From the IMG/VR virus record IMGVR_UViG_3300045988_062648, positions 26,514 to 90,513 of that record: a stretch of DNA of 64,000 bases. One strand, written 5' to 3'. The translations under genes were made by a program, and so were the position numbers. The notes under the pieces were generated by a model. It worked only from the letters and a program-made list of their open reading frames with translations, was not told the origin of the DNA and searched no databases. Positions 5,697-63,636 of the stretch are shown in pieces; position 1 is the stretch's first letter, and each line of letters starts with the position of its first letter. Origin of the DNA: a virus.

Positions 5697-8600
5697 ATGA
5701 GTAATCGTAGAAGTCTTAAATGTGGTGGTAGACAAAAACTTGCTTGTGGTGGTAGACGTAAAGCATCGACTGGACTAGCAATAGGATTGTCAGCTCTTAA
5801 TAGTTTAGGAAGTATGATTGGTGGAATAGTATCTGCTAATGCTCAACGCAAAGCTATACAAGAATATAATGACCAACAAAGAGTAAATAATCAAATAGCA
5901 AGTTCTAATAATTTAGCTGCTTCTGTAAATAGAAATATAGCTAGCAATAGAAATCTAAATAATTTTAATTTAGATGAATATATTGTTTATAAATACGGAG
6001 GCAAAACTCGTCCTAAGTGTAGTTTTGGAACTGTATTCGCTAATATAACTAAAGGTATTAACACATTTGCTCCTTTAGCAACTTCTTTAGCTGCTGCTGG
6101 AAGTACTGCCCCTACAAGTATTGGTACGTCTCTTCAACAAGATCTTATAAATAATGCTACTGATGCTAATATATTACGTCAAGCTGCCACACAAACATTT
6201 AAATGTGGTGGTCGTAAGAAAGCTCGTAGCGGTATAGCTAGAAGACTTGAAAGTCCTTATATTACAGATGGAGGAGTAGCTATTCCTCTTGGCAACGGAT
6301 TATCTCTTCTACGGGGGGCGACACATGAGGACATCAATGAAACAGGTCAGACCGGTATTGGTATTAATACAGGTAAAGGAGAGATAGAAGCTGAAAATGG
6401 AGAAGTAATACAAAATACTGGTAAAGAACTTCGTATTTTTAGTGACCAACCAATATTTAATGGTATTAGCCCTGCTGATGCAGTTCAAGCTGGTTATAAT
6501 CCTAATCGAGTATTTAATGCTCAAGAAAGAGTTAAAAGCAGACTTGGTATTAAAAATCCTAGTAAGAAAGCTCCTTGGGGAGATAATGTAGATATACAAG
6601 AGTCAGATGCTACTAGAACTTATGCTACTCCATTTAATGAACGTGGACGTAGAACTTCTTATGCTGATAGTTATCAAGGATGGTTTGATCCAGTTAGTTA
6701 TCTTACTGGTAGTGCATTTACTATTGCAGATTATTATTCTACTAGACGTAGAGGTGAAACTCCTGAAGAATGGGCTGAGCGTCAAGCAGTAGAAGCACAA
6801 TATCGTTCTACAGGTTATGCACCTAATGTTGGCTTTCGGGGAGGAATGGGTAGAAATGCAGTACAACGTGCAGCTACTACTAGATATGCTAATCAAGTTA
6901 GAGGACAACAAATTAGACAAACAGGTAGATATAATAGAAATCAATTACTTTCTCAACAACTTGGAGAAGCAGCTCAAGCTAGAACTGCACAAGGTGCTAG
7001 ACAAATTTCTAATAAAATACGAGTTAAAAGAGCAGGACAAGAATGGACTAATGCTGCTGAAACTCCTTATGCTCCTTATGCTGGTGCTGCTGAGAGCCGT
7101 GGTGTTGCTTATCCGTATGAGAATGCAGTTGGTACATTAAATCTACCTAATGCTAGAGCTGAACGTATTAGAACTTCTATTAATAGAAGAATACAAAATG
7201 CTAAAAATAGAATAAATCAACGTAGACAAAATAATACAAATAACAATAATACTAATAACACAGAAACTAATAATTCTAATAATCAAAATGAAAGTTGGAT
7301 TAGAAGAACTAGTCGTAAAGCAGCAAATACAGCTAAGACTTATGGTAAATATGGAGCTATGGGAGTTGGAGTAGGTGGACTTATTACAGGTGCTATAGCT
7401 CTTGGAAATAGAGAAAGTATTAATACAGCAGGTACTAATAGAAATTCTAATAATCAACAAGCTGCTAGACGTAATACTTCTTCTCAGCAAAATAATAATC
7501 AACAAGCTGCTAAACCTACTAGAAGTCTTAAAGATATAGCTCGAGAAACAAATGCTGTTGTTAATCAAGACTTTTTATCTCTTAATCAACGTAATTTAAT
7601 ATATGGTGCTATTAATGTAGGAAATAAAAGAAATAATAATTCTAAAAAATCTCGTGGTAATAGAACTACTAGAGCTAACAGAAATACATCTAAACGAAAT
7701 ACAACTTCACGTAGAAGTCTTAAAGATATTGCTCGTTTTACTATTCCTAATTATATTCCTACTCCTACTAGAACTACTATAAGACGTGCTCAATCTGTTT
7801 ATGATTTAGGTTTAACTAATGAACAAATAGATAGACTTAAAGAAGAAATTACTCAAATTCCATCTAGACCTAGAAAACGTTTTAGTGGACGTAGCACTAC
7901 AACCCCCGTAGAAAGGATTGGTAGACCTAGATTTGTTATTGGAGGTTCTAATGCTTATGATTATACTAATCAATTTCTTAATAGTATAGCTCCTGCTAGA
8001 GTAGTGGATAATAGACCTATTTGGCAAAGAAGTAATTTTAGTCTTCCACAAGTAGCTAATCAAATTACAGGACAATCTGCAAACAATACATCAGTAACAT
8101 CTACAAATACAAATACTTCACCTACATTTAATGTTAGAAGTAATAATCTTGGAATGGATATAACTGGTAGAGATTGGATTGGTTTGGGTACTGATATACT
8201 TGGTAGTCTTGGTGTTGGTTTATTTAATGCTAATTCTTTAAAAGGGTTAGATGTTAATTATACTATTCCGCAATATGTAGATGAAACTCCTGTAGCATTT
8301 GATACTACTTGGCATAATGGAGCACAGCGTGCTAATGTAGAACGTAATCGTATTAATGCTCGTAATATAATTGGACGTAATACAGCTTCAGCTAATACAG
8401 CGGTTCAACGTATGCAACAAAGTGATACTGACGCTATGATGCAACAGAATGTTCTTTGGGACGAAAAAGCTAATAAAGAAGCTGAACTTAGAAATACTGC
8501 TGCTGCAAATGAACAACAAGTTCGTGCTAGAAATGCTGCTGCTAGAAATGCTTATTATCAGAATGTTGCACAAATACGAAATGCTGAACAAGATGCTAGA

Positions 8601-8936
8601 AATAATATTAGACTTGCACAAGCTAATGCGATAAGTGGAAGTCTTGCAGGTTTAGGTCAAGCTGCATCTAACTTCTTAACTTCTGCTGGTCAACGTTATG
8701 AAGATAATAATGCTCTTAGAGCTTATATAGCAAGTAGTGATGAAGGAACACTTGGAAGATTACTTTCTGCTGGAGTTCAAATAAATCCTGATATACTTGC
8801 CGGTTTGTATAATTATGAAGTACAAAGACCAAATGCTAATAGTAAAGAAAGCAAAGAACGTCGAAGTATAATGCTGAATAATTTAATTAGAAATAGAGGT
8901 TACAGACGACAAGCTAGAGGATTAGGTTTAATCTAA
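5697..8936 (+). CDS. low-complexity R/N/Q/A/T-rich virion protein (putative internal/ejected cargo protein, 1079 aa)
   Basis: Repeated K-C-G-G-R motifs (LKCGGRQKLACGGRRKA and, later, FKCGGRKKARSG). Duplicated (T/R)RSLKDIAR(E/F) segments. Long N/Q/R/T tracts and a coiled-coil-like C-terminal half. Locally higher GC than its neighbours. Confidence 0.55.
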   Translation: MSNRRSLKCGGRQKLACGGRRKASTGLAIGLSALNSLGSMIGGIVSANAQRKAIQEYNDQQRVNNQIASSNNLAASVNRNIASNRNLNNFNLDEYIVYKYGGKTRPKCSFGTVFANITKGINTFAPLATSLAAAGSTAPTSIGTSLQQDLINNATDANILRQAATQTFKCGGRKKARSGIARRLESPYITDGGVAIPLGNGLSLLRGATHEDINETGQTGIGINTGKGEIEAENGEVIQNTGKELRIFSDQPIFNGISPADAVQAGYNPNRVFNAQERVKSRLGIKNPSKKAPWGDNVDIQESDATRTYATPFNERGRRTSYADSYQGWFDPVSYLTGSAFTIADYYSTRRRGETPEEWAERQAVEAQYRSTGYAPNVGFRGGMGRNAVQRAATTRYANQVRGQQIRQTGRYNRNQLLSQQLGEAAQARTAQGARQISNKIRVKRAGQEWTNAAETPYAPYAGAAESRGVAYPYENAVGTLNLPNARAERIRTSINRRIQNAKNRINQRRQNNTNNNNTNNTETNNSNNQNESWIRRTSRKAANTAKTYGKYGAMGVGVGGLITGAIALGNRESINTAGTNRNSNNQQAARRNTSSQQNNNQQAAKPTRSLKDIARETNAVVNQDFLSLNQRNLIYGAINVGNKRNNNSKKSRGNRTTRANRNTSKRNTTSRRSLKDIARFTIPNYIPTPTRTTIRRAQSVYDLGLTNEQIDRLKEEITQIPSRPRKRFSGRSTTTPVERIGRPRFVIGGSNAYDYTNQFLNSIAPARVVDNRPIWQRSNFSLPQVANQITGQSANNTSVTSTNTNTSPTFNVRSNNLGMDITGRDWIGLGTDILGSLGVGLFNANSLKGLDVNYTIPQYVDETPVAFDTTWHNGAQRANVERNRINARNIIGRNTASANTAVQRMQQSDTDAMMQQNVLWDEKANKEAELRNTAAANEQQVRARNAAARNAYYQNVAQIRNAEQDARNNIRLAQANAISGSLAGLGQAASNFLTSAGQRYEDNNALRAYIASSDEGTLGRLLSAGVQINPDILAGLYNYEVQRPNANSKESKERRSIMLNNLIRNRGYRRQARGLGLI
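6304..6327 (-). repeat. dispersed GC-rich motif, copy 1 (reverse orientation, CTTCTACGGGGGGCGACA; intragenic)
   Basis: ctcttctacggggggcgacacatg; core 6306-6317. Confidence 0.9.
7894..7916 (+). repeat. dispersed motif, copy 2 (forward, gcactacaaCCCCCGTAGAAAG variant; intragenic)
   Basis: Core 7904-7916; encodes TTPVER in frame. Confidence 0.85.
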
Positions 8937-8951
8937 TGTTAGTAAAATAAA

Positions 8952-8987
8952 AATTCCTTTGATAATAACGATGTTATCAAAGGAATT
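8952..8987 (+). terminator. rho-independent terminator candidate after the 1079-aa gene
   Basis: Perfect 13-bp inverted repeat aattcctttgata…tatcaaaggaatt with a 10-nt loop, followed by acttatatttg (T-rich). It lies directly after the TAA at 8934-8936. Confidence 0.5.
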
Positions 8988-15100: not shown

Positions 15101-18100
15101 AATACAGAAGTATTATCTACCACAAATCAAAATCCCGTACAATCGACTGAAACCTCGCAGACGAACAATCCATCAGCTGTCACGTCCGAAACGCCCACAG
15201 CGCAAGCAAATAGGCAAAACGGCAATGTTCCGCCAACTCAAACACCATCTCAAACGGCTACATCAGAGCCAATAAATGTTCGTGTTGGTACTCGCAGTGG
15301 TAATCCTTTTATTACTGCAATAAGTGATACAGGAGCACAAAATCAAAATGGTACACTTGTTCCTACAACAGTAGCTGGTCGTTATAGACTGCAAACACAA
15401 GAAGAACAAATACTTAATAATGATAATTTCTATGATAAAGAGAATGGTGTTTCTGTTATAGATGGTGATTATAAAATTACTCAAGAACCAATAGTCATAC
15501 TTGATAATGATGGAAAATATGTTATAGAAGAGAAAGGATTATTGAGTAAAGTAAATGACGAGAAGCCCCCCGTAGAAGATAACGGTGGAACTCAACAAGG
15601 TGGAAACTCTTTTCAAGATGCTATTAGAGATAAAGAAACTCAACAAGGTGTAGTACAACAAAGTCAAGACGATGCAACCTCTTCTACGGGGGGCGAGAGT
15701 CAAGTAGATAGTTTTATCCCAGTAGAAGATTTAAGTCAAGCTGTAGCTGCTAGAATGACTGATATCAATGTTCTTGACTCAAATCTTGATTTAGACGCTA
15801 AAGCTCAACAATATAAAGAACAACTTAATCCTGAAGAATTTGGTGTTACAAGAGAAGAACTTGATAGAGTTATAGATGAACGTATAGCTGGTTTTAAACA
15901 ACTTAAAGAACATCTTGCTACACTTCAAAATCCTCAAGCTCAAGCTGCTACTGGAATAGCTTTTGCAGCTAGACTTATGGAACCTACTAGTAATGTATTT
16001 TCATTAATGTTTGCTAGTAGTATGTCTAGTTTTGTTCAAGAATATGCTAAGTCAATGATTATACCAAAGACTACAGATGGTCGTTATGTAATTAATCTTA
16101 GGTCTTTTCTTAGACAGCTTAGAGACGCTCTTGGCTCAAATAATAAAGATGTTATTCTTCCTATATATCGTCAAATTAAAACTTATTTCCTTAGTGCTGA
16201 CGGTAAAGCAAATTATGTACTTGATAATTATGAAACGTTACTTGATGATAGTGTATTAGATAATCTTGATAAGTCTGTAGAACAAATCAGACAAGAACAA
16301 AATAATAATGTAACGACATTAAGAGTAAATATTAATGACTTTATAGAAGCAGCCAATAACGTTTACGATGATGCTAGACGTCAAGAATACTTTAATGTTC
16401 TTGATAATCTTAAAGTTGGAGATAAACTTACTCTTAGAACTCTCGATGGTTACATAGAAGTATCTAAAGGAAATGTAGTAGTAGGTAATATGTCTATTGC
16501 TAAAGTTACTCCTGATGGTAGATATTATGTATATAATGAAGGTTGGAGAGAAGATGTTAATATTGGTTCTAATGGACAAATTATAAGTGATGCTAAACAA
16601 ATAATAGAAGATATATTTACAGGACAGTCTGTAAATCATACTAGTCTTCGTAAAATTATTACTGATGCCATTACTGCTAGAGATATTTCAAAAAATCTAG
16701 TTAATCGTTTTGCAGCTAATCCTATTATAAATGATTTAGCTAATCGTTCTAGAGGAGAACAAGCTGGAGAAAGAATATTCTTTGTAGATGATAAGACAGG
16801 TCTTATTGACTATGATAGAATACTTCGTCATCTTGTAAAACTTTGGAATTATTCTTTTGTTAGTAATAAATCAATAGTAACAAATGATGATATAAAAGCT
16901 AGTCTTAATAATTGGTATGAAAAACTTTATCATACTTATAATAATATTAATTATCTAGCTCAACAACAAGATGTTACTGTTAGTTACATGAATGAAGGAG
17001 CTATTAATAGAAAAGTAGAAAATGATACAGCTAATGCTTATGAACAATTTGAATATGCTTCAAATGGTATTGCTGATTTATCTCAAGCTGCTCTTGGAAT
17101 AACTGCTCCCATAACTAATACAATGGTAATATCAGGACATAATGGAGAATCTTCTACATGGAGTGCTGGTAGTACAGTTGTAGCTATTTATAGTAGAAAT
17201 ACTAAACCTGATTTTGTTAAAGCTTATGGTCTTAGACTTACAACAGATGAAATGAAGCAAAATGCTACATTTAAAGCTATGAATGATGCTATGCAGAATA
17301 GACTTATTTCTATTATAAATAGTTTAATAAGTAATAATTCTGATGAAAACTTTAGTAAACTTGTAGATACTATAACGTCCATTCTAGCTTGTAGAAATTT
17401 TACTGATTACGTAAATCCTAAGACTAAAGTTCCAATATATAGAGCTATGTCTGGAAGATTCCAAATTAGACCTGTTACTTATAGAAATACTCCTAATATT
17501 AAAGGTATTGATATAATATATACAAGTCCTGATGGTCGAATGAGTAACTTCCATATTTATAATCATGGTGCTAATAGACCTCAAATAGGTTATAAACCGG
17601 CTAATACAAACAGATTTGTATTTACTGATACTGATAGTACTATTACTGGTTCTAGGATAGCTACTGATTTTATGAACTTTATAGCTCCTTATGTAAACTT
17701 TAATATAGCTCAGGCTGGTATAGCTCTTGATAATAATCCTAATGCTGATTATGCTGGTTTTATAACTCATAAAAACGGAAAAGTAGTTGTTAATATTCCA
17801 ACAGAAGATAATACAATTGGATTTAATGAAGAATATGATAGTTATAGTCAATTTGTTCTTAGTAATAATCTAGTCAAAGTTAATACTTTTGTTGGTCAAA
17901 ATGGTAAGAACTTTAGTTATCAAAATGGAAATCAACGTGCTAATCAAGTTCTTTATGTAGATAGTGAGTTGGGAACTACAACCCCCGTAGAAGAAACGAG
18001 ATATATTAATTCTAACTCTGATGCAGCTCTTAATCAACAAGTTTATGATATACTTAACTCTAATGAGCCAACTAGTAATACAGGAGAACGTATATTCCAA

Positions 18101-19225: not shown

Positions 19226-19283
19226 AATACGTCCACTTTTAATTTTGAACCGCTTAAAATCGAATTTAAAATATATAATAACT

Positions 19284-22200: not shown

Positions 22201-25200
22201 TTGAAGCTAAAACTTATCGTCCTGTATTTAAACCTGGAGTTAAAGATACAGATGGTTATAGATTTTATGACCTTGGAAAGAATGGAAGTGTAATTGAAGC
22301 ATCTAAAACTGGTAATATTTCACATTATAGACTTGGAGGTAATGTATTTAAAAGTAATAAATTTACTGTAAAAGAACTTGGAGATGATAATGTGCTACGT
22401 AAAGTCAATTATATGGAAGATATATTTGACGATAGTATTAATAGCACAGGAGCTGATGGTCGCATCAACCTTCTCTACGGGGGGCGAGAGTCCAAACTTA
22501 ATATTGTTCGTAGTGATACTGGCTTAGTCACAGATGTTCAACTTACAGAAGCACAACAAGAAAGAGCTATTAATAATATAGTTAATTTCCTTAATAGTTA
22601 CTTTACGCAAGCACAAGAAGAAGTTGCTAATTTTAATAATTTTGTTAAAGGTGTTCCAACTACTATAGATGCTGTTGTAGATTTTGCTGCTAATCAACTC
22701 ATTACTCATTATGCTTATGATGACATATTTGAAGGTGGAGTAAAGTTCTATGCTGATGCTCAAACTGTACTTAAACGTGCTAAAGAAGTACAAGGTAGTG
22801 GAGTATCTTATGGTATTGTTGATTTTAATGATTCAAATATAGCTGATTTATATGATATTCCAAATGCTTATCTTAATAATGGTAAGTATTCAGATTATAC
22901 TAAAGAACAATATATTGGTGAAGATGGTAAACGTCATACTAAAGAAGTTCCTAGAACTAGAACTATTCAAGAAGTATTTGCTGGTACTGAACTTGCTGGT
23001 ATAACACAACGTAATGGCTGGCGAGCAGTTACTATTGAAAATAGTAAAAACACAAACTTTGCAGCACTTAAAGAACTTACAGGCGTTCTTGTTAAAGCAG
23101 GAATGAGTGAAGAAAATGCTAAAAATCTTCTTTATGGTCCTGTTGTAACAGATAAAAATGGTAATCCTATTTATGATAAAAATGGACTAGAAAAACATAA
23201 AGGTGGTTATCAAGATACTAAAGTTAATGATGCACAGTCTTATATAACATTTAAAGAATGGGTTAGAAGAATAGCTGCAAGAGGTCAACTTAAACGTTAT
23301 ATGCCACTTATTGAGAAACTTCTTGATCCAAATGCTGTACTTACTGATAATGACCTTAATGAATTTGTACAAGTTCAAAAGAATTTCTATTATGATTTAC
23401 ATTATGATAGTAGTTTTAATCGTTTTGTTCCTCGTCAAATTAAAAATGCAGAGTTTGTATTAGTTCCTCGTTTTATTAAAGGAACTCAACTTGAACGAGT
23501 CGCTCAAATGATGGAAGAAGCTAATATAGACCAGCTTAATACAGTTGAAACTAGTAAGGCTTCTAATCGTCATGTACTTACTCTTTGGGATAATGATGGA
23601 GAAATAAGTGAAGAACGTTATCAAAACTTTGCTAAAGAAGCAAAAGGAGTGGCTGAGATTTATTATTATAAATATCTTTATACTCAACAAGAAACTCCGC
23701 AACATGTTAATACTACTAATAAAGCAGGTATTCAAATAGTCAAAAAGATGATTGATAATCTTGCTCAAGATGACCCTAATAAACTTCAATTCTTTGCTAA
23801 TTATGTAGCTAATATTGAAGAAAGTTGGAGAAATCTTCTTGATAAACTTGATGTACCTCGTGATGAAAATGGTAATATACTTACTAATCAAGATGGTCAA
23901 ATACTAGGTATTAATAAAAAAGTTCTTTATGAAAGATTTAAAGAAGAACTTTATCGTACTGGCATTAATAGTAATATACTCGATTTTGTAACTCTTGATG
24001 AAACTACAAATCAACCTATTGCTCCTGCTATTAGCAATCTAGTTCTTGATAAAATAGAAACTACTCATCAAGCTATTTATAATAGTAAGATTACAAGACA
24101 GAAACTTCCTGGTTTCCATGCAGCGCAAGTAACTAATATTGGTTGGAAGAGATTAGATAATGGTGAAAGTAAATATTGTCTGAAAACTAATGCTAATGTA
24201 ATTATAAGTAAAGAAGAGTTTAATAATCTTGATGAAACAGAGAAAAAGAAATACCGTAACACACAAGTACAATATGATGGTAGCTTACGTTATCATCCTA
24301 ATGGAGAAGGTTATATTGAAGTAAAACTTACTTATAGTGCTTTAGGTATCAATAAAAATGATCCTCACTATATAGGAATGACTAATGCTGAAATCATTAA
24401 AGAACTTGAAGAACAAGGACTTGATAAAATTATTGGTTATCGTATTCCTACAGAAGGTAAACAATCAGTAGCTGTAATGAAAGTTGTAGACTTTATAGAT
24501 GATGGTCTTGGTTCAACTATTGTAGTTCCTAATGATTGGGTTAGTCAAACTGGTTCTGACTTTGATATTGACTCTGTATATGGTATAACTTTCGATACTC
24601 ATAGAGGAAAAGGCGGCAAACTTATTAAAGCTAAATTTGTTGATGGAGATAATTATACTATTTCTGATTGGATTAATTATATAAAGAATTATGCTGATAG
24701 AAATGCCAAAGGTTATGTTCGTCCTAAAATAAAACAAATTATAGATGCTATTAATAGTTCTGAACAAGAAGAATTTGTTAGTCTTAGAGCACAAGAAGAT
24801 GAAGCATTTAAAAAATTTATTTCTGCTATACCTGAACAAAGTAGAGGTAAAATGGTAAATAGATTTAAGAATGAGGCTAAACGAATAAGAACTGCACTTG
24901 ATGGAGCTAGTAATAAAGAAATATGGTCAGCTCAACTTGAAAAATATATTCAAATAGCTAGTGATCTTAAAGCTAAACTTAAAAATGCAAATACTATTGC
25001 ATCTATAGATGAATTTATTTCTTCTTGTGATGATATACTTAATTTCCTTAATAATCAAGATGGAAGATTTGAACGAAAGAAAGATGCAGCTCTTGCTGAA
25101 GAAGAACAAAAACGTATAGATAAGTACAATGAAATAGCTAAAGAAGCTGGGCTTCTTACATTTGATGAATATTTTGATGCACTTGACGCAGCTAAAACTC

Positions 25201-28200
25201 CAGAAGATTTTGCTAAACTTAATACCCGTCATGCTAGAAATAATGCTATTGTTCAATCTATGCTTAATATACTTCAAGATGTAAAGAATCTTGAAGAAAA
25301 TCTTTCTCGTTCTAATTCAGATGATATAGAAGCTAGTATAGATAAATGTCTTGGGGATAATGCTAAAGCTGAACGAGAAAATCGTAGCCAGTATAATGTA
25401 TTTGACGAAATGCGTTATCAAGAAGAAGCTATGAGTGGTGCTGTCCTTAAAGGTGCTAGCGTATTTATGGATAGTGTATGTTCTATATGTAATGTTGTTA
25501 AACCTACACTTCGTGGTGGTGTTAAAGTTTCTTATGATACTAAATTTTATAATCAAGAAGAAATTACCAAACGTTACGGTTTAAATAAAAATGATATTAG
25601 TAAAGGACGTATTCGTGTAGTACATAATCAATATGGCTGGAGTTCAGATAATAGAAATGTTATTGGACGACTTATAACACCTTATAGTTCAGAAACTACA
25701 GCTTATATTCTTGATGCTATCAAGAAAGGTGCTATGCCAAATGTTAATCAATTTACTTTCCCAGTTCTTAAACATTTGGTTAATCTTGGTATAGATTATG
25801 ATACTGCTATATCATTTATGGCAAATCCTGCTATAAGTACAATAATACGTAATAATAATAGATTTAATTCTATTTATAGTAATGAGTTTGGAAATGCTAT
25901 TCATGAAAGTATTAACGAAATAGCTCGTCAACTTGGTATAAAAGTAGATGAAAAAACACCTGTAATAAGTGTTCTTGCTTCTGTTCAATCTAAGTTTGGC
26001 GATGTTATTAATAAGATATTTAAAGTAGATAAAGAAGACGTTAAATTTAGTCTTGAAGAAGAAGCTGCTGCTACTCTTGCTTTAATGCCTGATAAACTTA
26101 TAGCAAGACTTAAAGATAATGGTATCTTTGGCACTACAACCCCCGTAGAAGAGAAGTTGATATTTGACTTAGGTAATATACTTATCTTTAATAGACTTCG
26201 TAATCAAGCACAAGAAATAGGTGGAGTAGCAACTGCTCTTAATCCAGATAAGTTTGGTGCTAAAATGAGTCTTTTTGCTACTAATCAAATATTTGATAAA
26301 ATACTTGGACAAATATATACTGATAGTAGTTATGTAGAAGAAAGAACAGACCCTATTCTTAGTATTAATGGAGAACATATACTTAAAAGTATTTATCCAG
26401 GTATTACAGGAGACCCAGAAAATAGTATAGAACCTGGAGTTCCAGCAATGCTTAGAGCAGATATTAGTAAAAGTACTTATCCATCTCTTGCAGCATTTCT
26501 TAAATATGCTACAGCTACTTCTTCTGTAATTGCTAAACAAGTTCTTCTTACTCAACATCCAGCTTTTATTCGTTTTTGTAACGGACTTGCAACTAAGTTT
26601 AGTGATGTTGTACAAGAAATGGACGAAAAGCAATATAATGATTTTCAAAAGTATGCTATTAGTTATTTCTACAATAATGTAGAAAGTATTAGGCGTCCAA
26701 TTGTACCAGTCAAAAACGAAGATGGTACTTATAGTTATAATATAGATAATAGCGATACTCCAGACAATGCTACTATTTCAATAGAAGATGCAGAACGTGA
26801 ACGAGTATTTGGTTATAATAGAGTTCCAGCTTTATCTATAGTTGAAAAAGTACAAGTTACTAGAAATGGTAAAACTATTAATAAGACTGTTACTCGTCCA
26901 ATAGAAATAGAAAATCTTAATCATCCAACTCAAGAAGAACTCAATGATTTTGCTCAATTTAGTCCTGCACAAAAAGTTAAGTTTATTAAAACTCATTTTG
27001 ATGATGCAGGAGTGTTCGATTATATTGATGTTCAACTTTATAATCCTACAATAAGAGGTTGGAGAACTGGTATGCAAACTCTTGAATATCTTGAATCTAA
27101 CGTTGGTGACAATGTTATATTTAATATGTTCTATGAAGCATATAATAATCGTAATCCTCTTGTTGCTATGGCTGCTAGAGATGTAATTAAATATGCAATA
27201 CAAGTTGAAGGTTATCGTATGCGTCAAACTGCTGCTGGTAAAGTTATTAGTAATAAACCTCTTAATACTGGTTATGAAGAAGGTGGAATGAATTTCTTTG
27301 CAGAAGTTGCTGAAATGTTTTCTACTATTGGTACAACAGGTAGTGCTATATTTGAACAAACTAGTATGGATGAAATATATGAGAGATATTTTAGAAGTCA
27401 TATAGATAATCCTCATATTAAATCATTTAGACTTACTAATTCAAGTATGATTAAGTTTAATATTCATACTCGTAGTTACGATATGCTTGTAATGGAGAAA
27501 AAGTATGATGAAACTTCTGATGATGATAAAATAGCTAAAGAGTTTAATAATAATTGTGCTAAAGCAGGAATTAAAACTTATCATCCAGCTTCTAATACAT
27601 ATACTACAAATAATTATCTTAGAGTATATCGTGATAAAAAAGTTGTATTATATAAAATAAAAGATCTTGGTGATAAAGTTATACTTTATCCTCTTAATAA
27701 ACTTCAACCTAATGAAACTACTGAATGGTCAGCTAATGATAATAATAATGAATATCCTAATAAAATAACTTATGAAGGTATTATTCATGATTATCAAAAA
27801 CAACTTTTTAATGATGCTGCATTACAATTTACTAGTGGTTGGATAAAAGAAAGTAATAATGCTAGAAAACAAAATGGTGAAAATCCTGTAGTTTATTATA
27901 AGCATCGTAGAGATTATAGCAATCAAGCAGCTACAGTTGATTTCAATCTTGATAAACTTGCTAATGAACAAGGAGGTGCTTTAGCACAAGCTCGTGAACA
28001 AATTAGAAGTAATTTTGAACGACTTAATGCTAAACATCTTTATATGCGTAATGCTGCTCTTGGTAATTATATATTTGTTCCAGGTTTTGAAAATGCTAGT
28101 AAGCAAACTATTACAATGAGAAATGGAGCTAAAAGTACATTCCTTATTGCAAAAGTAGATACAGACAGAAGTAGAACAAATAAACGTTATTTAGGTAATA

Positions 28201-33533: not shown

Positions 33534-33561
33534 GTTGGGATATACAACCCCCGTAGAAGAG
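33534..33561 (+). repeat. dispersed motif, copy 8 (forward extended GTTGGGATATACAACCCCCGTAGAAGAG; intergenic, 1 nt after the RNAP stop)
   Basis: Core 33548-33559. The 3' part AAGAGGTGA pairs with TCACCTCTT at 33592-33600 (9-bp stem, 26-nt loop). Confidence 0.9.
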
Positions 33562-33778
33562 GTGATGGTAGAAGTTGTAATACTCTACTATTCACCTCTT
33601 TCTCTTTCTTAACATAATTTTGTAATTCTGTTTAATGCTGAAACAAGTAATATTACTATATTTGTAATACCGCTTATGCTACATATATAATATGACTTGC
33701 ATTTGTTCCTGATGCAGGTGGAGGACGAAAAGGAGCAGGAGTTCAAGCTAGCTCTCCTTCATCAAAAGTTAGCTACAA

Positions 33779-37232: not shown

Positions 37233-37260
37233 CTTGGGATATTAAACCCCCGTAGAAGAG
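37233..37260 (+). repeat. dispersed motif, copy 9 (forward CTTGGGATATTAAACCCCCGTAGAAGAG; intergenic)
   Basis: Core 37247-37258. Confidence 0.9.
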
Positions 37261-37386
37261 TGTACATCGTAGCCTTACTTTGGTAAAAAGTTCAATCATC
37301 ATTTGTTTCAAAAGCATATTCACTCTATCTAACTCTATTTTGTCTAGTACCAATATCACTACTATCTAGACTAAGACTACAACATC

Positions 37387-37417
37387 TCATTTCTTCTACG
37401 GGGGTTGTGTATCCCGA
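37387..37417 (-). repeat. dispersed motif, copy 10 (reverse; revcomp GTCGGGATACACAACCCCCGTAGAAGAAATGAG; intergenic)
   Basis: Core 37392-37403. With copy 9 it forms an inverted pair bracketing about 130 bp. Confidence 0.9.
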
Positions 37418-37434
37418 CTTACAGCTTCACCAAG

Positions 37435-41422: not shown

Positions 41423-41436
41423 AATATTAAATTTTA

Positions 41437-41468
41437 GTTGGGATTTACAACCCCCGTAGAAGAAAATG
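41437..41468 (+). repeat. dispersed motif, copy 11 (forward GTTGGGATTTACAACCCCCGTAGAAGAAAATG; 51-bp intergenic gap)
   Basis: Core 41451-41462. Sits 15-46 nt upstream (on the minus strand) of the start of gene 41018-41422. Confidence 0.9.
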
Positions 41469-41473
41469 TGATA

Positions 41474-42624: not shown

Positions 42625-42654
42625 ACCACCATCTCTTCTACGGGGGCGGCTCAA
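42625..42654 (-). repeat. dispersed motif, copy 12 (reverse CTCTTCTACGGGGGCGGCTCAAG; intergenic, between a terminator and the next gene start)
   Basis: Core 42635-42646. Confidence 0.85.
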
Positions 42655-45754: not shown

Positions 45755-46904
45755 ATTTAAGTGTATCTTTTATAAAATTATTTATTTCATCTATTGTGAA
45801 TTTATCATGTAAATCACTAAAATCTTTACATTCAAAATTCTCTAAACCAAATTCACCACGAGTAATAAAAAGATATGGTATTCCATAAGTTTCTTCTAGA
45901 TATTTAGCACCAGCTCTACCAGTAGTATCAAAATCTAGAAAACTTAAAATCATACCACCATCTGAAAGTTTACGTTGAAGATATTGATATTCATTCTCTT
46001 TAAGTTTATAATTTTCACTCGGAAGATTTATAATACCAATATTGAGTTTGACACTACCACCCCCGTAGAAGAGCGGATGATTATCAAGATGACTTCCTAG
46101 ACTCAATCTATCTTTACTACTTTTAGTTATGATAATATAATCATAATTATTAAGTTCAAGATTAGGTAGACCTTCAAGCACATTACAATTAGTTATAAAT
46201 TTAAGTTGAGTTTTTCTATTACGAAGAGGAAAATAAAGTTTAATAAGTGAAATACCTTTACGATTTTGTCCTATAAAGTAAGCATAACAAGGATCTTTAC
46301 TTTTATAATAATATTTAGGTTCAGTATCTCTTGTTCTGTTAATATAATATTGGTCTACAGGATAAACAAAATGAGTATTAAGATAACTTAAACTTACACC
46401 CCATCTACCCCATATATCTTTATCATATTTATTCCAACTTCTAGTAGCAACTTCTATAATAGGTCTTTTCTTTTTGCCTTGTTGAATAGCATTTTTTATA
46501 CTATCGTCAATGAAAGGGTCAACTTCTTTTCCATCTATAATATCAGAGAATGTATAAGCTATATGTTTAAGAACAAAATAAAAATCTTCTTTATTATTAG
46601 TTTCTATTTGTCTATTATACACAATACTTAATACATAAGCTACAACTCCATATACATCTTCAAAGAAACCAAAACCTCCAAAATCTCTTACTTTAAGTCT
46701 ACCTTTGGCATTATATTGAATACCCATACTTTTATTAACATCATCGTCACGAAATACACTCTCGATTAGATGATTATGTTCTATACAGTCTTTTACTGTT
46801 TCAAGTGGTATATCAAGATACTTACTAACAATAAGTTCTTGACTAACTTTACTTTCGATATAACTCTTAGTAAGTTTAGAAGTATTAGGTGTTCTTTTAA
46901 GCAT
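45714..46904 (-). CDS. Toprim-domain protein (primase-like)
   Basis: …NVLEGLPN… (conserved Glu) followed about 80 aa later by …ILSFLDFDTTGRAGAKYL… (DxD), as in DnaG-type Toprim domains. No clear zinc-binding N-terminal domain. Confidence 0.35.
   Translation of the reverse strand: MLKRTPNTSKLTKSYIESKVSQELIVSKYLDIPLETVKDCIEHNHLIESVFRDDDVNKSMGIQYNAKGRLKVRDFGGFGFFEDVYGVVAYVLSIVYNRQIETNNKEDFYFVLKHIAYTFSDIIDGKEVDPFIDDSIKNAIQQGKKKRPIIEVATRSWNKYDKDIWGRWGVSLSYLNTHFVYPVDQYYINRTRDTEPKYYYKSKDPCYAYFIGQNRKGISLIKLYFPLRNRKTQLKFITNCNVLEGLPNLELNNYDYIIITKSSKDRLSLGSHLDNHPLFYGGGSVKLNIGIINLPSENYKLKENEYQYLQRKLSDGGMILSFLDFDTTGRAGAKYLEETYGIPYLFITRGEFGLENFECKDFSDLHDKFTIDEINNFIKDTLKYVELRFKHKAICY
46050..46076 (+). repeat. 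dispersed motif, copy 13 (forward GACACTACCACCCCCGTAGAAGAGCGG; inside the minus-strand primase-like gene)
   Basis: Core 46060-46071; antisense encodes PLFYGGGSV. Confidence 0.9.
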
Positions 46905-49948: not shown

Positions 49949-51370
49949 TTAATCTACAACTATTACATCATTTATTTTATCATAAGCAGCAATATTTTTA
50001 ATGTTATTAAGTAAAATATGACTTACGGGCAATCTACGTTCCTGCAAATGCCTTTGTTCGAGAGTATTAGATATATATAAGGTAAATAATTTAATTGGAC
50101 TATTAAAATTTACCTTATCCAATCTATAAATATAACTTTCAATATCATTACATAACGGAGAAGTTATAATAACAATATCCACATCAATAGCAAGTTTTTT
50201 ATCTGGAGCATTACCTACACTAAGAACATTAATTCGATTATTATTAAACGAACTCATATTCATAGTACATTGAAGTTGTGCTCCAGCCATTTTAATCATG
50301 CCAGCTTTAGCTCCACTTTTATAAGTTACAAAATTACCATTTATATCTTTAAGTTCGATAGAATCAAGTTTATCATGAAAACACTCACAAACTTGTTTAT
50401 TAAAACTCTTATTAAGATAATCTCTAACTTGTGTAGCAAAATTAGCTTTCTTATTTATAATAAGAATTTTCTTATAGCTATGTTCTTTTACTATTTCATA
50501 TGTTGCTTGAAGTTTATTTTCATTACTAGCTAAAAGCTCTGTTCTAGCACGAATAATATCATAAGTAAGTTTAGCTCTATCTGATAAAGATATAGGATTA
50601 AATAGAAAATCTATTTGCCTATTATATTCTATATTCATATCAAGATTTTCAGACCAACCATTAGATATTGCAACTCTTCTACAAACTTCTTCTGCACTAA
50701 CATTATTATCTTTATCTCCAATTCTTGCTTTATCAAGCATTTTTAAATCACCAAAAATATTAACGCTAGTAGTAATATAATCATTATGTTGTTTAAGAGT
50801 TTTCTCGTCTTTAGAGTTAAGTTGAACGTCAACCAACAACTCTTCTACGGGGGTCGAGAGCCTAATACTTCTTACTTCATCTTCTTTAAATGTTTCTAAT
50901 AGAGGACAAATTTTATAAAGTTTACTTCTATCTTCATCAGCTATAAGTTTATTAACAATAACTAATTTGAACTTTCCTTTATTAAGAGCTTCACATATTA
51001 TATTAGTTATATCTTCAACATGATACAGAATAACAAGTGAAAAGATACCATTAAGAGTAAACAGATTATCTTCTACAAGATTTTTAGAAACTACTTTTAT
51101 AGTTTTTTTACTAATAAGGTCTTTAAACTCTTTATTATTCTCTTCTTCATTTTGATGTGTAAGAAAATCAACAAGTTGACTTCTTTCATTAAAATCAGAA
51201 GTAATAATAAAAGTACGTCCAAAATTTTTATTATTATAAACTCTTTGGAGTATTCCAAGCATTAAAACTTTATCATTTACACCAAAAGGTATAATAGCTG
51301 TTCCAATACCTTTTTTAATTCTCCATTCTTCTATAGCTTTTATAAATAATTCACCAAGTTTTTCATTCAT
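49949..51370 (-). CDS. hypothetical replication-module protein (473 aa)
   Basis: ORF immediately downstream of the DNA polymerase. No clear Walker A. Contains one motif copy. Confidence 0.45.
   Translation of the reverse strand: MNEKLGELFIKAIEEWRIKKGIGTAIIPFGVNDKVLMLGILQRVYNNKNFGRTFIITSDFNERSQLVDFLTHQNEEENNKEFKDLISKKTIKVVSKNLVEDNLFTLNGIFSLVILYHVEDITNIICEALNKGKFKLVIVNKLIADEDRSKLYKICPLLETFKEDEVRSIRLSTPVEELLVDVQLNSKDEKTLKQHNDYITTSVNIFGDLKMLDKARIGDKDNNVSAEEVCRRVAISNGWSENLDMNIEYNRQIDFLFNPISLSDRAKLTYDIIRARTELLASNENKLQATYEIVKEHSYKKILIINKKANFATQVRDYLNKSFNKQVCECFHDKLDSIELKDINGNFVTYKSGAKAGMIKMAGAQLQCTMNMSSFNNNRINVLSVGNAPDKKLAIDVDIVIITSPLCNDIESYIYRLDKVNFNSPIKLFTLYISNTLEQRHLQERRLPVSHILLNNIKNIAAYDKINDVIVVD
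50840..50862 (-). repeat. dispersed motif, copy 14 (reverse CTCTTCTACGGGGGTCGAGAGCC; inside minus-strand gene 49949-51370)
   Basis: Core 50842-50853. The coding strand reads …SIRLSTPVEELL…. Confidence 0.9.
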
Positions 51371-51373
51371 ATA

Positions 51374-53692: not shown

Positions 53693-54237
53693 AATATTTC
53701 ATAAGCACTATAATCATCATTTATTGCAGCATTATACCATTTAATTAGATCATTAGTGAATACTTCACCTTTATTTTCATCTATTAGTTTAACACGAGGA
53801 GAATAAGTAATACTAATTGTTTGTTTAGCATATTTAAATACTTTATCTTTCCATACATTAATATTGGTTACACTAAGTATTATATTGCTTGGTTCTAACC
53901 CACATAAAAGAATATGTTTTTTGGCTAGACTAAATTTACTCATAGTACGCTTTAAACAGTCATAATAATAACTTTGTGCAACTTCATATCCATTAAGACG
54001 AGTAGGACTACATTGAAGCATTGGTGCAATTATATAACTTTGCTCTAGCCCCCCCGTAGAAGAGATGGTTTGCACCACCTCTTTTACTCCTACATCATCT
54101 TCAATATTCTCTGTATCAATATATGGAACAACAATAGCTAAATTACTAAAAGGATTACCGAAAACTTGTGGTTCACGATAACCCTTTAGATTTAGTTTAA
54201 GAGGACAATTATCACAAGTCATCATAAGCATCTTCAT
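53689..54237 (-). CDS. possible uracil-DNA glycosylase-like protein (family 4-like), tentative
   Basis: N-terminal C-D-N-C-P-L followed by …VFGNPFSNLAIVVPYID…, reminiscent of the UDG family 4 CxxCxL…GxxP motif. Adjacent to the polymerase gene. Confidence 0.25.
   Translation of the reverse strand: MKMLMMTCDNCPLKLNLKGYREPQVFGNPFSNLAIVVPYIDTENIEDDVGVKEVVQTISSTGGLEQSYIIAPMLQCSPTRLNGYEVAQSYYYDCLKRTMSKFSLAKKHILLCGLEPSNIILSVTNINVWKDKVFKYAKQTISITYSPRVKLIDENKGEVFTNDLIKWYNAAINDDYSAYEIL
54046..54066 (+). repeat. dispersed motif, copy 15 (forward CTAGCCCCCCCGTAGAAGAGATGG; inside minus-strand gene 53689-54237)
   Basis: Core 54049-54062. Confidence 0.85.
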
Positions 54238-57366: not shown

Positions 57367-58221
57367 TTAATCTTTTAATTCATCTTCTGTAAATGCACTA
57401 AGAACGAAATTTCTAACAGCTTTTTCGGCATTACGATATAATCGTTTAGCTGTTTTAATATCTATATTCATAGTACATTTTCTTACGTCTTCAAGTTCAG
57501 CAGGAGTAAATGCTCTAACTGCTAAATCTTTAAGAATAGGATTCATACTATAATACCAACTACGAGCTTCATCAAGAGTTAATATAACATCTATATGACG
57601 CTTTATATTAGTATTTGGCTCTTTTGGTGCATTATCTGTATTGGGATTTACAACCCCCGTAGAAGAATGTGCATCAAGCTCATTTGCTTTTATAAGCTTA
57701 TATACAGCTGTACTTTCTCTTTCACAATTAACAATCAATTCATTTGCTTTATATTTAAGAATATTATCTTCATCTTTAAGACAACAATGACCCTCAAGTG
57801 CTCCAAATATACATTGATTACATTTAGTTTCATTATCTGGATGCGGAATACACTCTTCAAGTTTATATTTACAACCATTAAGGTTAATAGTATCACCAAT
57901 ATTCATTACAGGAATAGAACCAACACTTAAATCATGAATTTCAGTTTCTTCTTCAACTTTTTCCCAGTGCATTCGTTTATTAGCGTTGCATATCTTAAAC
58001 ATTTCGTCTTCATCATTAGCAGATAAAGTTGTAGCATGAGTTGCAAGTAAACACTCTCCTTTATTACCAAATATACATGAGCGGCAATCTGTTTTACCAT
58101 GTTCAGTATTTACAAGACTATAATTATCTCTATTTTGTTTTCTTTTTATTTCCTTTTTCATATTATTTCCTCCAATACTATCTGTTTTTGTATATTTTAA
58201 ATTCGCATATAAAAGGCTCAA
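57367..58221 (-). CDS. Cys-rich hypothetical protein (284 aa) with a duplicated C-terminal motif
   Basis: Several CxxC-like pairs. Repeated …LAVRAFTPAELEDVRK… / …FVLSAFTEDELKD…. Contains one extended motif copy. Confidence 0.45.
   Translation of the reverse strand: MSLLYANLKYTKTDSIGGNNMKKEIKRKQNRDNYSLVNTEHGKTDCRSCIFGNKGECLLATHATTLSANDEDEMFKICNANKRMHWEKVEEETEIHDLSVGSIPVMNIGDTINLNGCKYKLEECIPHPDNETKCNQCIFGALEGHCCLKDEDNILKYKANELIVNCERESTAVYKLIKANELDAHSSTGVVNPNTDNAPKEPNTNIKRHIDVILTLDEARSWYYSMNPILKDLAVRAFTPAELEDVRKCTMNIDIKTAKRLYRNAEKAVRNFVLSAFTEDELKD
57640..57671 (+). repeat. dispersed motif, copy 16 (forward extended ATTGGGATTTACAACCCCCGTAGAAGAATGTG; inside minus-strand gene 57367-58221)
   Basis: Core 57654-57665. 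The full intergenic-type extended form sits inside a coding region. Confidence 0.9.
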
Positions 58222-59376: not shown

Positions 59377-59444
59377 AATATTTATACCATTATTAAGTTA
59401 AACATTTAGTTATATAATAGTACAAATATAATGGATTAGTTCAA

Positions 59445-59475
59445 CATTTCTTCTACGGGGGTTGTATATCCCAAC
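59445..59475 (-). repeat. dispersed motif, copy 17 (reverse; revcomp GTTGGGATATACAACCCCCGTAGAAGAAATG; intergenic)
   Basis: Core 59450-59461. Confidence 0.9.
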
Positions 59476-59500
59476 TCCTATAACAACATTTAACTTAGTC

Positions 59501-59650: not shown

Positions 59651-59690
59651 AATCTTTTGTGTTATTAAGTTAAATATTTAATGCGTTATG

Positions 59691-59849: not shown

Positions 59850-59940
59850 GTTTATATTCTCCTTTACTTTTATTATTATTTACTTCATTTTCAGTATTAC
59901 TCGTCAAACGTTATACGTTTATCTCGTGTCAAGCATTTAT

Positions 59941-62235: not shown

Positions 62236-62825
62236 TCCTTTTCTTTATTTTTATCATTCTCTTGATAAATAATAAAAGGAATATCTAATGTATTTTTAGT
62301 TTTAGGACAAACTATAACTGATTCATCATTTATATTTGCTGTAATTGGAAAATCATATTCTAAATTTGATTTATCTTTAAGTTCTTCTTTATTAGCTTCA
62401 ATATTATTATTATTAAGATTACCAACTAGCCAAGATAGTTTATTATAAGTTTTATTATTTGAAATACGATTCTTTGCTTTTTTTACTTCTTCTTTTCTAT
62501 TTACTTTAGCTTCTTTATTTATTCCTATTTCTTCTTTATATATTTCATAAGTATCAAAAGCATAATCTATAAAATCGTTTATTAATTCTTTAATTCTATC
62601 TCTTTTTTCCTTATCTGTTATGTTATCCTTTAATATTACTTTTGTGGCTACAATAACTTTATTATTTATATCTATTGTATTACAACCTGTTATAGGACTA
62701 AATTCTTCAGATGTTCCACATACGAATGGAAGATAAATACGAGGAATATCAGTATTATTTCTAACACTATTTATAAATTCTAGATATTTTTTACGTTCCT
62801 CTTCATTATAAAAATTTTGTTTCAT
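62226..62825 (-). CDS. hypothetical protein (199 aa), K/E-rich
   Basis: ORF. Confidence 0.45.
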   Translation of the reverse strand: MKQNFYNEEERKKYLEFINSVRNNTDIPRIYLPFVCGTSEEFSPITGCNTIDINNKVIVATKVILKDNITDKEKRDRIKELINDFIDYAFDTYEIYKEEIGINKEAKVNRKEEVKKAKNRISNNKTYNKLSWLVGNLNNNNIEANKEELKDKSNLEYDFPITANINDESVIVCPKTKNTLDIPFIIYQENDKNKEKEKR

Positions 62826-63231
62826 AAAGACTTAAATAATTAATTATACTACCTTTAAAAATATATTTTATATTAATAATATATTTATTTTTAACTCCAC
62901 TTTCATATATAATGTTGTTACTAATAAGTTCTTTAACTGCATTATAATATGTAGATTTCTTTAATTTACTATATTTAGTAAAATCATCGCTTTTAATATA
63001 AACAGTATTAGTATCAGATATTAGAATTAGTTTTATATATTCTATAAGAAGTAATGCTGGTCGAGTTAGTTTTGGAGCTATCATTGCAAGACTAATATCT
63101 TGCATTATAAAGTTTCTATCTTTAATATAAGGAGTTCTTATTATAATACCTTTATTAGTTCTTTCTTCTTTATAATCTAGAATAATATTTTGATTATAAG
63201 GAACTTTACTTATATAATCTCTTTTATCCAT
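62806..63231 (-). CDS. putative DNA-binding (winged-helix-like) protein (141 aa)
   Basis: …KSTYYNAVKELISNNIIYESG… HTH-like segment. Similar in style to the 36469-37089 protein. Confidence 0.35.
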   Translation of the reverse strand: MDKRDYISKVPYNQNIILDYKEERTNKGIIIRTPYIKDRNFIMQDISLAMIAPKLTRPALLLIEYIKLILISDTNTVYIKSDDFTKYSKLKKSTYYNAVKELISNNIIYESGVKNKYIINIKYIFKGSIINYLSLYETKFL

Positions 63232-63381
63232 TCGTTTACTATTAAAATCTTCTACAAATATACCACTAAAATTCCAAAATAATGGAATAATTACGTTAAA
63301 TTAACTTAAAAACTCCAATATAGTGGAAATTTTAGACTTGTAACTTATTGATTATCAGGCAGTTACAATGAGCAGTAATAT

Positions 63382-63636
63382 CTATATAGATATAATATAA
63401 TAGTCTTTATTATTACTATTATTAGTATTAGCATTAACTTGGGCACTACAACCCCCGTAGAAGAAATGAGAACTACATTCTCTTATTTTATTATTTTGTT
63501 CTTTATTATCTGTACTACCATAAACAAAAATAGCCCTACTACTTTCACAAGCAATAGGACTATCCCTTTCATTAACATCATTTATATGCAGTTTTAGCTC
63601 GACATCAAAGATAGTGAATTTATGATAATGAACCAA
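63382..63636 (-). CDS. doubtful ORF (84 aa) overlapping a motif copy
   Basis: Contains FFYGGCSAQ, encoded by the antisense of the dispersed motif. The same peptide appears in clearly spurious antisense ORFs at 7812-8075 and 17870-18139. Confidence 0.2.
   Translation of the reverse strand: MVHYHKFTIFDVELKLHINDVNERDSPIACESSRAIFVYGSTDNKEQNNKIRECSSHFFYGGCSAQVNANTNNSNNKDYYIISI
63438..63470 (+). repeat. dispersed motif, copy 18 (forward CTTGGGCACTACAACCCCCGTAGAAGAAATGAG)
   Basis: Core 63452-63463. Shares the trailing GTAGAAGAAATGAG with copy 10. Confidence 0.9.

Follow-up and report, generated by a model that had tools for sequence, protein, structure and literature searches.

Dispersed, oriented copies of a GC-rich DNA motif at fixed genomic positions in crAss-like phages of the family Intestiviridae

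What does a short GC-rich sequence do when it recurs, in both orientations and both inside and between genes, throughout an AT-rich phage genome? We followed this question in a window of 64 kb (positions 26,514 to 90,513 of the IMG/VR virus record IMGVR_UViG_3300045988_062648), a segment of a crAss-like phage. The first 33.5 kb carry virion genes on the plus strand, among them a 4780-aa open reading frame (ORF) for the RNA polymerase (RNAP), and replication genes follow on the minus strand past 34 kb. The 18 motif copies in the window are one lineage's form of a cis-acting DNA signal common to the Intestiviridae. The signal is asymmetric and without a conserved hairpin, its neighboring copies tend to oppose each other in direction, and its positions are fixed and orthologous, in genes as well as in spacers, across subfamilies.

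On the two strands of the window, CCCCCGTAGAAG has 16 exact matches, with 0.00 expected from 100 dinucleotide-preserving shuffles, which rules out chance or base composition as the origin of the copies. A search tolerating up to two mismatches turns up two further true copies, 7903+ (GTAGAAAG) and 22472- (GTAGAGAA), which differ from CCCCCGTAGAAG by one or two bases, as well as a match at 15717 that is probably a chance hit. A profile hidden Markov model built from the 18 copies recovered the same 18 and no other significant match in the window. These counts bear out the repeated 12-mer in both orientations that an earlier note, made from the letters of this DNA, had described, and they amend some of its details. 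Two copies have core substitutions, where the note counted five with an insertion or substitution; its "insertion" copies merely have a sixth or seventh C beside an intact 12-mer. What it took for a decayed copy, at 62.1 kb, amounts only to CCCCCGTCAACT, with three to four differences and undetected by the profile, and the GC content, given as 28%, measured about 30%.

Each copy is embedded in an element of about 35 nt, TTGG-N8-9-CCCCCGTAGAAGA-G-R-TG, with the fuller window consensus t.a.tTTGG...tacaa-CCCCCGTAGAAGA-gaTG. This element is two-part and asymmetric, its TTGG box lying 8 to 9 nt upstream of the C-run, and the "subfamilies" previously drawn from the flanks turned out to be mostly coding-frame variants of one element sharing this box. 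The copies, 11 on the plus and 7 on the minus strand (18 and 14 in crAssphage), have a density of about 1 per 3.5 kb, that is, about 1 per 7 kb per strand; 11 to 12 lie within ORFs and 6 to 7 in short spacers. Relative to transcription, 9 are sense and 9 antisense.

The reading frames show what is being conserved. All five intragenic sense copies use the P-V-E frame (TTPVEE, STPVEE or PPVED), and a TAG stop would arise in one of the two remaining sense frames of the motif, while the antisense intragenic copies use all three frames (LLRGA, SSTGG and L[FL]YGG). The frames and peptides given in the earlier note were correct, and its proposal of a nucleotide-level constraint is supported: because every allowed frame, both strands, and spacers carry the motif, the constraint acts on nucleotides and not on protein, and a conserved peptide is ruled out as the cause. 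We are all but certain that the motif is a real, selected signal at the DNA level.

Ranked by DNA polymerase, the closest complete genomes belong to the Intestiviridae, and a k-mer over-representation analysis of related genomes revealed that all Intestiviridae genomes examined have their own version of C4-5-GTA-R-A-R-G (family consensus C4-5-GTA-R-A-R-G-(R)..ATG). A motif private to the window phage is thereby ruled out. The prototype crAssphage (Carjivirus communis) has 32 copies of CCCCGTRGAGGATGGA, its version being AC(C/T)CCCCGT(A/G)GAGGATGGA. The other versions are AGCT-CCCCCGTAGAAGG in Wotdevirus murinus (15 copies), CT-CCCCCGTAGAAGAG in cr271_1 (17 copies), CCG/CCC-CCCCGTAAAAGGTATG in cr8_1 (26 copies), TCCCCCGTA(G/A)AGGAA in cr3_1 (28 copies), and TTCCCCC(G/A)TAAAGGAG in crAss002 and cr107_1 (8 and 9 copies, respectively, in the first 50 kb examined). 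The invariant core comprises 13 nt in the window and 12 to 17 nt in the relatives.

Within each genome, the copies are uniform in the 4 to 5 nt that precede the C-run; between genomes these nucleotides differ, even at orthologous sites: TAGCT at 7 of 7 copies in the relative L085, ACAA or TCGC in the window, and AGAC or ATAC in crAssphage. To judge from the sequences, this concerted change of versions suggests either a co-evolving reader or homogenization between copies. Since the version differs between phages, the putative reader, for which a dedicated protein had already been inferred, is presumably phage-encoded. Variation within the motif is mostly purine-to-purine in its 3' half (143 transitions versus 43 transversions). 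This bias is no evidence for RNA-guided recognition, as mutation bias together with synonymous-site constraint could give the same pattern.

The Intestiviridae motif was not found in the Steigviridae crAss001, cr106_1, phi14:2, cr111_1, and cr128_1 (first 50 kb for crAss001 and cr106_1). A 9-mer, CTCC(A/T)GAAG, is over-represented in crAss001 and cr106_1 instead. In the first 50 kb of crAss001, CTCCAGAAG occurs 14 times, counting both strands, which is roughly 100-fold more often than base composition predicts, and in those of cr106_1, CTCCTGAAG occurs 10 times; no comparable signal was found in phi14:2, cr111_1, or cr128_1. This 9-mer may represent a second, shorter signal family. A scan of bacterial genomes with the lineage-specific 18-mer, a weak test, matched one contig only, which speaks against a signal of host genomes: JAZSIL010000043.1 (8.9 kb, in a "Bacilli bacterium" metagenome-assembled genome) is a crAss-like phage fragment and probably mis-binned. 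It spans the PD-(D/E)XK nuclease to terminase region and has two motif copies in opposite orientation.

How firmly the copies are held in place could be gauged with a distant relative. A scan of IMG/VR with the motif 15-mer gave a single multi-copy contig, IMGVR_UViG_3300045988_073497 (90.8 kb), and a metagenome scan recovered this relative as OHWI01000045.1, plus fragments of a third one. The window phage and OHWI01000045 share about 40% protein identity in the RNAP, and their nucleotides are 65 to 80% identical where alignable. Eleven sites could be paired as orthologs, and in their 13-nt cores 143 of 143 positions agree, compared with 44% in the ungapped flanks; even the variant GTAGAGAA at 22472 is present at the relative's orthologous site. 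The check that the earlier note had proposed, for presence and positional conservation in relatives, thus did not weaken the case for an active signal.

The same codons are occupied over greater distances. In the SNF2 ATPase, one aligned column reads StpveeL in the window, TtpveE in Wotdevirus, and LlpveE in crAssphage gp17. In the RNAP, the antisense LYGG at one aligned column is invariant in all five Intestiviridae proteins compared, and four of the five genomes were flagged as having a motif copy there, the DNA of cr8_1 not having been read at this point; the sense TPVE column is present in three of five genomes compared. Within the LYGG stretch of the primase, Y280 and G281 are invariant in 31 homologs (45 to 95% identity, including the crAssphage type), and the crAssphage primase gene carries a motif copy of its own (16625-). 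All four graded relatives (87 to 74% primase identity) retain the SNF2 and primase sites, and three of them also the inverted pair close to the DUF932 gene. In an AlphaFold model of the primase, otherwise confident, the motif peptide LFYGG (residues 280 to 284) falls in a low-confidence loop with a pLDDT of <50, which suggests that flexible loops can accommodate intragenic copies. In the region 59142-59896 (-), the surroundings of a spacer copy are the best-conserved stretch between window and relative (83 to 86% nucleotide identity). This region has a non-coding look, yet it holds three small ORFs of about 45 to 52 aa, and a non-coding RNA "master copy" at 59.1 to 59.9 kb is ruled out. The individual copies and their counterparts are listed in the table.

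Table. Motif copies in the window (orientation is relative to transcription; "relative" is OHWI01000045, and labels beginning with L are our handles for relatives or their loci)
Copy	Element (strand)	Core	Context	Peptide read	Occurrence in relatives and further features
1	6299..6325 (-)	6306-6317	antisense in ORF 5697-8936	LLRGA	
2	7884..7923 (+)	7903-7914	sense in ORF 5697-8936	TTTPVER	variant GTAGAAAG
3	15558..15585 (+)	15567-15578	sense in 2353-aa ORF; left arm of convergent inverted pair		pair 3/4 also in relative (L007 267/375)
4	15672..15704 (-)	15681-15692	antisense; right arm of pair, 114 nt from copy 3	SSTGG	see copy 3
5	17963..17999 (+)	17982-17993	sense in 2353-aa ORF	TTTPVEE	
6	22464..22502 (-)	22472-22483	antisense in virion RNAP ORF 19191-33533	LLYGG	variant GTAGAGAA
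7	26123..26161 (+)	26140-26151	sense in RNAP ORF	TTTPVEE	column also occupied in relative, Wotdevirus, and cr8_1
8	33531..33568 (+)	33548-33559	intergenic, 14 nt past RNAP stop codon		3' half is 5' arm of terminator-like hairpin; position occupied in relative, Wotdevirus (7 nt past stop), and cr8_1 (31 nt past stop)
9	37233..37266 (+)	37247-37258	intergenic; arm of convergent pair, 157 nt upstream of RepL-like ORF 36469-37089 (-)		pair 9/10 kept in L083, L084, L085, cr8_1, and Wotdevirus
10	37383..37422 (-)	37393-37404	intergenic; second arm with copy 9, 30 nt past stop of DUF932 gene 37435-38505 (-)		see copy 9
11	41434..41471 (+)	41451-41462	antisense, in 51-nt spacer of two minus-strand genes		ortholog L005:4087
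12	42626..42653 (-)	42635-42646	intergenic, sense, directly past hairpin and T-run		ortholog L024:1249
13	46041..46081 (+)	46060-46071	antisense in primase gene 45714-46904 (-)	LFYGG	
14	50833..50871 (-)	50842-50853	sense in SNF2-like ATPase gene 49949-51370 (-)	STPVEE	
15	54032..54071 (+)	54051-54062	antisense in UDG-like gene 53689-54237 (-)	SSTGG	common to Wotdevirus, L083, and L084; not to crAssphage
16	57637..57673 (+)	57654-57665	antisense in doubtful ORF 57367-58221 (-)		near this position relative instead has divergent pair (L025 2443-/2533+)
17	59442..59477 (-)	59450-59461	sense, in spacer of two small ORFs		ortholog L025:3566
18	63434..63471 (+)	63452-63463	about 200 nt upstream of crAssphage RepL homolog 62806-63231 (-)		ortholog L025:7887

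Positional conservation also bears on the possibility that the copies are a selfish miniature mobile element or GC cluster, of the repetitive extragenic palindromic (REP), REPIN, or miniature inverted-repeat transposable element (MITE) type, that spread through an AT-rich genome. Several features recall such elements. The copies form GC-rich islands in DNA of about 30% GC, in both orientations and with inverted doublets as in REPINs; about seven crAssphage copies bear an extra GC-rich mini-hairpin; and one site, L042:6991, occurs in the relative but has no counterpart in the window. The GTAG tetranucleotide of the motif is conserved in REPs too. We nevertheless consider this origin extremely improbable. 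The sites are orthologous across subfamilies, and an invariant core within diverging flanks is the opposite of what decaying insertions show. At the copies, no terminal inverted repeats were found, no consistent flanking direct repeats were seen by eye, and there was no clean empty site or insertion footprint that would define an inserted unit. The sole gain or loss that we saw, L042:6991, lacks the marks of a clean insertion, the two genomes differing there only by 9 nt in the length of a variable loop. Furthermore, no transposase or RAYT-type gene appeared in PHROG and Pfam scans of the minus-strand block, many of whose small ORFs are uncharacterized, or in the annotations of relatives, though a host might supply such an enzyme.

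Neither is the signal a fold. In 80-nt DNA windows around the copies, the mean folding z score was -0.13, versus -0.45 at random positions, and only tight inverted pairs fold; no conserved hairpin was found by this folding, which rules out a local structural element. An Rfam search gave no match to the motif and found a tRNA-Gln alone, ruling out a known RNA family or tRNA-like element. This tRNA-Gln (anticodon TTG) lies at 33779-33850 (+), between the two convergent gene blocks; upstream of it are copy 33548 and then a terminator-like hairpin (AGAGGTGA...TCACCTCT plus a T-run), and in cr8_1 and cr271_1 a tRNA-Gln is annotated just downstream of the giant RNAP gene.

Orientation and location were pooled over six genomes with 136 copies. 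In total, 63 copies are sense and 73 antisense to transcription, and in spacers the numbers are 24 and 23; 89 copies lie inside genes, and 47 lie in the approximately 9% of sequence that is non-coding, an about 4-fold enrichment in spacers. Neighbors are related in direction. All 16 pairs less than 500 nt apart are inverted and none is direct, and distant neighbors alternate in 75 of 114 cases. The orientation P values, 0.003 to 0.06 in five of the six genomes, are optimistic, since sites were inherited in common by these genomes. That close pairs are all inverted could reflect instability of direct repeats at short range, which would not account for the distant alternation. In the window (P = 0.035) and in crAssphage (P = 0.005), the longest interval between copies falls short of what random placement would give. 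Interspersed, alternating orientations with rather even coverage are most simply explained by strand- or direction-specific reading, and we think it probable that the motif is read directionally.

The tightest inverted pair, with its copies 26 nt apart, is in crAssphage. In this genome, two convergent pairs (L067 28030-28230 and L068, crAssphage 95700-95920) enclose very AT-rich spacers of about 80 to 105 nt just upstream of both repL genes, and by this arrangement they look like origins. An Ori-Finder origin prediction in crAssphage coincides with one of these pairs (PMC10983915). GC-rich mini-hairpins with co-varying stems (GAGTGC-TAC-GCACTC and GAGC-TTC-GCTC) stand on the outer sides of the pairs. 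The window has its pair 37247+/37393- upstream of the RepL-like ORF 36469-37089(-), whose Pfam RepL score of 20.9 bits is marginal at a threshold of 20.3. A second RepL-type ORF, 62806-63231(-), is a tblastn homolog of crAssphage gp43 and gp88, with copy 63452 upstream. These two different ORFs, each with an upstream copy or pair, mirror the reported two-repL layout of crAssphage. Two loci of crAssphage, and in a loose sense one locus of the window, thus have boxes beside an AT-rich element and an initiator gene; most motif copies are single and distant from any initiator gene.

Convergent pairs around AT-rich spacers also recall promoter-primed origins, and the motif might act at the RNA level, as a promoter, a terminator, or, for example, a promoter of the giant virion RNAP that also primes replication at the AT-rich pairs. 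Its length and lineage-specific co-variation resemble T7-type promoters, and both copy 33548 and its cr8_1 ortholog are sense and upstream of the tRNA-Gln gene. The orientation counts given above, overall and in spacers, are unrelated to gene direction, however, in agreement with the earlier conclusion against a one-directional promoter, and roughly two-thirds of the copies are intragenic. Copy 33548 runs directly into the terminator-like hairpin, and neither the folding nor the Rfam result speaks for an RNA signal. In the crAss-like phage phi14:2, the early transcripts share no upstream motif, and the middle promoters resemble sigma-70 promoters and are sense (phi14:2 RNAP preprint). We therefore regard an RNA-level role as very improbable.

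We tentatively favor a different role, as one possibility rather than a likelihood: the event at the sites may be a strand-specific DNA transaction in replication or processing of the genome. In this scenario, suggested by the arrangement of the copies, a phage-encoded factor would read the motif strand- or direction-specifically, and each site would undergo a single-strand transaction, either a site-specific nick or the entry or priming of the replication machinery. The inverted pairs that flank AT-rich spacers beside repL genes would then serve as two-directional start points. The localized nick motifs of tf, phiKMV-like phages, and T5 offer a precedent of comparable length and density.

Several points weigh against this scenario. 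Both strands carry the motif, whereas known phage nick motifs lie on a single strand, and nicks at tight inverted pairs would nearly equal a double-strand break. Wotdevirus keeps 15 copies and a pair, yet has no detectable RepL, and some inverted pairs lie inside structural genes without an AT-rich spacer. The orientation statistics are inflated by sites inherited in common. The primase fold is an ordinary Toprim one and lends no support to long sequence-specific priming sites. Finally, the element covers about 35 nt and its TTGG box stands roughly one turn of the helix away from the core, a footprint that would suit a reader of single strands no better than a protein bound to duplex DNA.

Such a protein is the basis of another explanation, which we hold to be conceivable but doubtful. 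The motif would be a double-stranded DNA site for a phage architectural or initiator protein, either an IHF/HU-like heterodimer of paralogs or a RepL-type winged-helix protein, that bends or compacts the genome and marks origins, with orientation mattering only locally. The asymmetric two-part element, with its TTGG box 8 to 9 nt from the C-run, matches the IHF footprint in size and asymmetry, and the even spacing, the spacer enrichment, and the inverted pairs around AT-rich spacers beside repL genes would all fit. IHF-like genes are annotated in these genomes, and two paralogs are conserved in crAss-like phages. Against this, the excess alternation among distant neighbors is not predicted, IHF-like genes also occur in Steigviridae, which are without the motif, and Wotdevirus again has the motif without a detectable RepL. 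The last observation likewise weakens RepL as the reader.

Returning to the strand-specific transaction, other candidate readers in the phage were considered. The AlphaFold primase model (pLDDT 78) matches the Toprim primases T7 gp4, T4 gp61, and DnaG, a type that normally reads trinucleotides. "Relaxosome" notes in GenBank annotations had prompted the idea of RSF1010-like single-strand initiation (ssi) sites with a RepB'-type primase, and this idea is ruled out by the DnaG/T7 gp4-like model. An HNH endonuclease (NUMOD4 plus HNH_3) encoded at 43055-43651 (-) adjoins the DNA ligase gene. It was rejected as a dedicated nickase: in OHWI01000045 its homolog is found elsewhere, at the end of the DNA polymerase gene (L062 11369-11555), which marks it as a free-standing, mobile gene of the homing type. 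The HNH genes of the two phages lie at opposite ends of a 10-kb block, 43704-53671, from ligase to DNA polymerase. Because nucleotide identity to the relative is 80.7% in this block and 65 to 72%, or unalignable, elsewhere, the comparison suggests mosaicism or recent exchange.

A directional signal with both orientations interspersed, at about 7 kb per orientation and in genes and spacers alike, could also be a Chi-like mark of self. A phage helicase-nuclease or tracking enzyme would be switched or halted by the correctly oriented motif, so that phage DNA is spared or repaired while host DNA is degraded. The lineage versions imply a phage-encoded reader, and a host genome of 5 to 6 Mb would, we infer, be expected to lack a core of 13 to 17 nt by chance. 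Possible components exist, with a RecD/Dda-like SF1 helicase encoded in the window and a PD-(D/E)XK nuclease annotated in relatives. Chi sites are only 5 to 8 nt long, though, and are read by the host's RecBCD or AddAB; we know of no phage-encoded Chi system. The phage encodes a Gam-like end-protection protein, which makes such a mark less necessary, and positional conservation over deep divergence exceeds what Chi logic requires. We judge a Chi-like mark to be decidedly unlikely.

A broader and more speculative proposal, which we consider rather unlikely, is that the motif belongs to a new class of phage genome punctuation, an oriented, alternating signal at fixed positions. A phage-encoded machine that tracks along the DNA would learn from it where to begin, halt, or change its activity. 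An SMC-like motor, a loader, or a helicase-nuclease might fill this role, and the logic would be analogous to that of Chi or of convergent CTCF sites. Such a signal would distinguish the phage's own DNA from that of the host or divide the genome into replication or processing domains, and would have persisted from a time before the split of the Intestiviridae subfamilies.

The Intestiviridae include the prototype crAssphage, which has been described as among the most abundant and persistent human gut phages, and the replication mode of the family, as well as its phage-versus-plasmid lifestyle, is still debated. Because the signal is family-wide and is kept at the same codons of RNAP, primase, and SNF2 ATPase genes over deep divergence, it points to an essential, undescribed DNA transaction. 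About 30 defined sites per genome offer concrete targets in the cultured members crAss002 and Carjivirus communis, and the lineage versions form a natural set from which, alongside the changes in phage proteins, the reader might be traced. Should the sites turn out to be nicked on both strands, to serve priming or loading, or to mark self, each outcome would add a new variant of phage genome organization. On a practical level, the motif is a signature for recognizing and sorting Intestiviridae contigs. No description of it was found among about 8 million open papers and preprints, including the 2024 crAssphage phage-plasmid and phi14:2 RNAP preprints, subscription journals being mostly uncovered. 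The signal is not specific to this genome, a point that the earlier note had missed, and extends through the Intestiviridae to the prototype crAssphage.

Among known systems, Chi is alike in being directional, over-represented at about 1 per 4 to 5 kb, coding as well as non-coding, variable between lineages, and read on one strand by an enzyme that tracks along DNA. That enzyme is the host's, and Chi is co-oriented with replication, whereas the Intestiviridae motif has a longer core in a context of about 35 nt, alternates in orientation, and differs in version among phages of related hosts. Promoters of the T7, T3, and SP6 class are asymmetric, about 17 to 23 nt long, and present in many copies, some of them in the preceding gene, and they co-evolve with their polymerase. 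They point with the genes, unlike the present motif, which has no such preference and lies mostly deep inside ORFs.

DnaA boxes and the sites of the simian virus 40 T antigen and papillomavirus E1 are asymmetric boxes that form inverted pairs beside an AT-rich unwinding region and an initiator gene, and DnaA boxes are also scattered around the chromosome. The crAssphage repL loci, with their inverted pairs and AT-rich DNA, have a similar look. Iterons, however, cluster at origins, whereas the motif provides one or two boxes per candidate origin and about 30 single boxes elsewhere. REP, REPIN, and MITE elements, together with yeast mitochondrial GC clusters, are similarly GC-rich, dispersed, present in both orientations, and sometimes arranged as inverted doublets, and GC clusters and Rickettsia palindromic elements can occur inside genes. 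REPs, REPINs, and MITEs are palindromic, usually extragenic or clearly inserted, and polymorphic; the motif differs in being non-palindromic, with orthologous positions and an invariant core.

The DNA uptake sequences (DUS) of Neisseria and uptake signal sequences (USS) of Pasteurellaceae are bacterial chromosomal signals driven by biased uptake in natural transformation. With the motif they share a core of about 10 to 13 nt within a weaker consensus, occurrence in both orientations and in genes (in tolerant frames and loops) as well as spacers, inverted pairs at gene ends, even spacing, and dialects that co-vary with the reader. A phage has no uptake step, and the resemblance is formal only; an analogous drive would be hypothetical.

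The nearest described systems are the localized nick motifs of T5/BF23, phiKMV-like, and tf/LUZ24-like phages, which resemble the Intestiviridae motif in being short, non-palindromic, indifferent to genes, and conserved within a group, at comparable length and density. To our knowledge, conservation of individual nick-motif sites at the depth of a family has not been described. The nick motif of tf has 9 nt (TACTRTGMC) and that of phiKMV-like phages 19 nt (CGACxxxxxCCTACTCCGG), and T5 also has such motifs; those of tf number 14 per 46 kb (about 1 per 3.3 kb), all on the top strand, and nick motifs of these phages are reported to be of unknown function (PMC3517423). Because the known nick motifs lie on one strand only, their defining feature is missing from the Intestiviridae motif, which uses both strands about equally, with excess alternation. 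With its many oriented copies at inherited sites, the motif belongs with the dispersed genomic recognition signals, a known kind.

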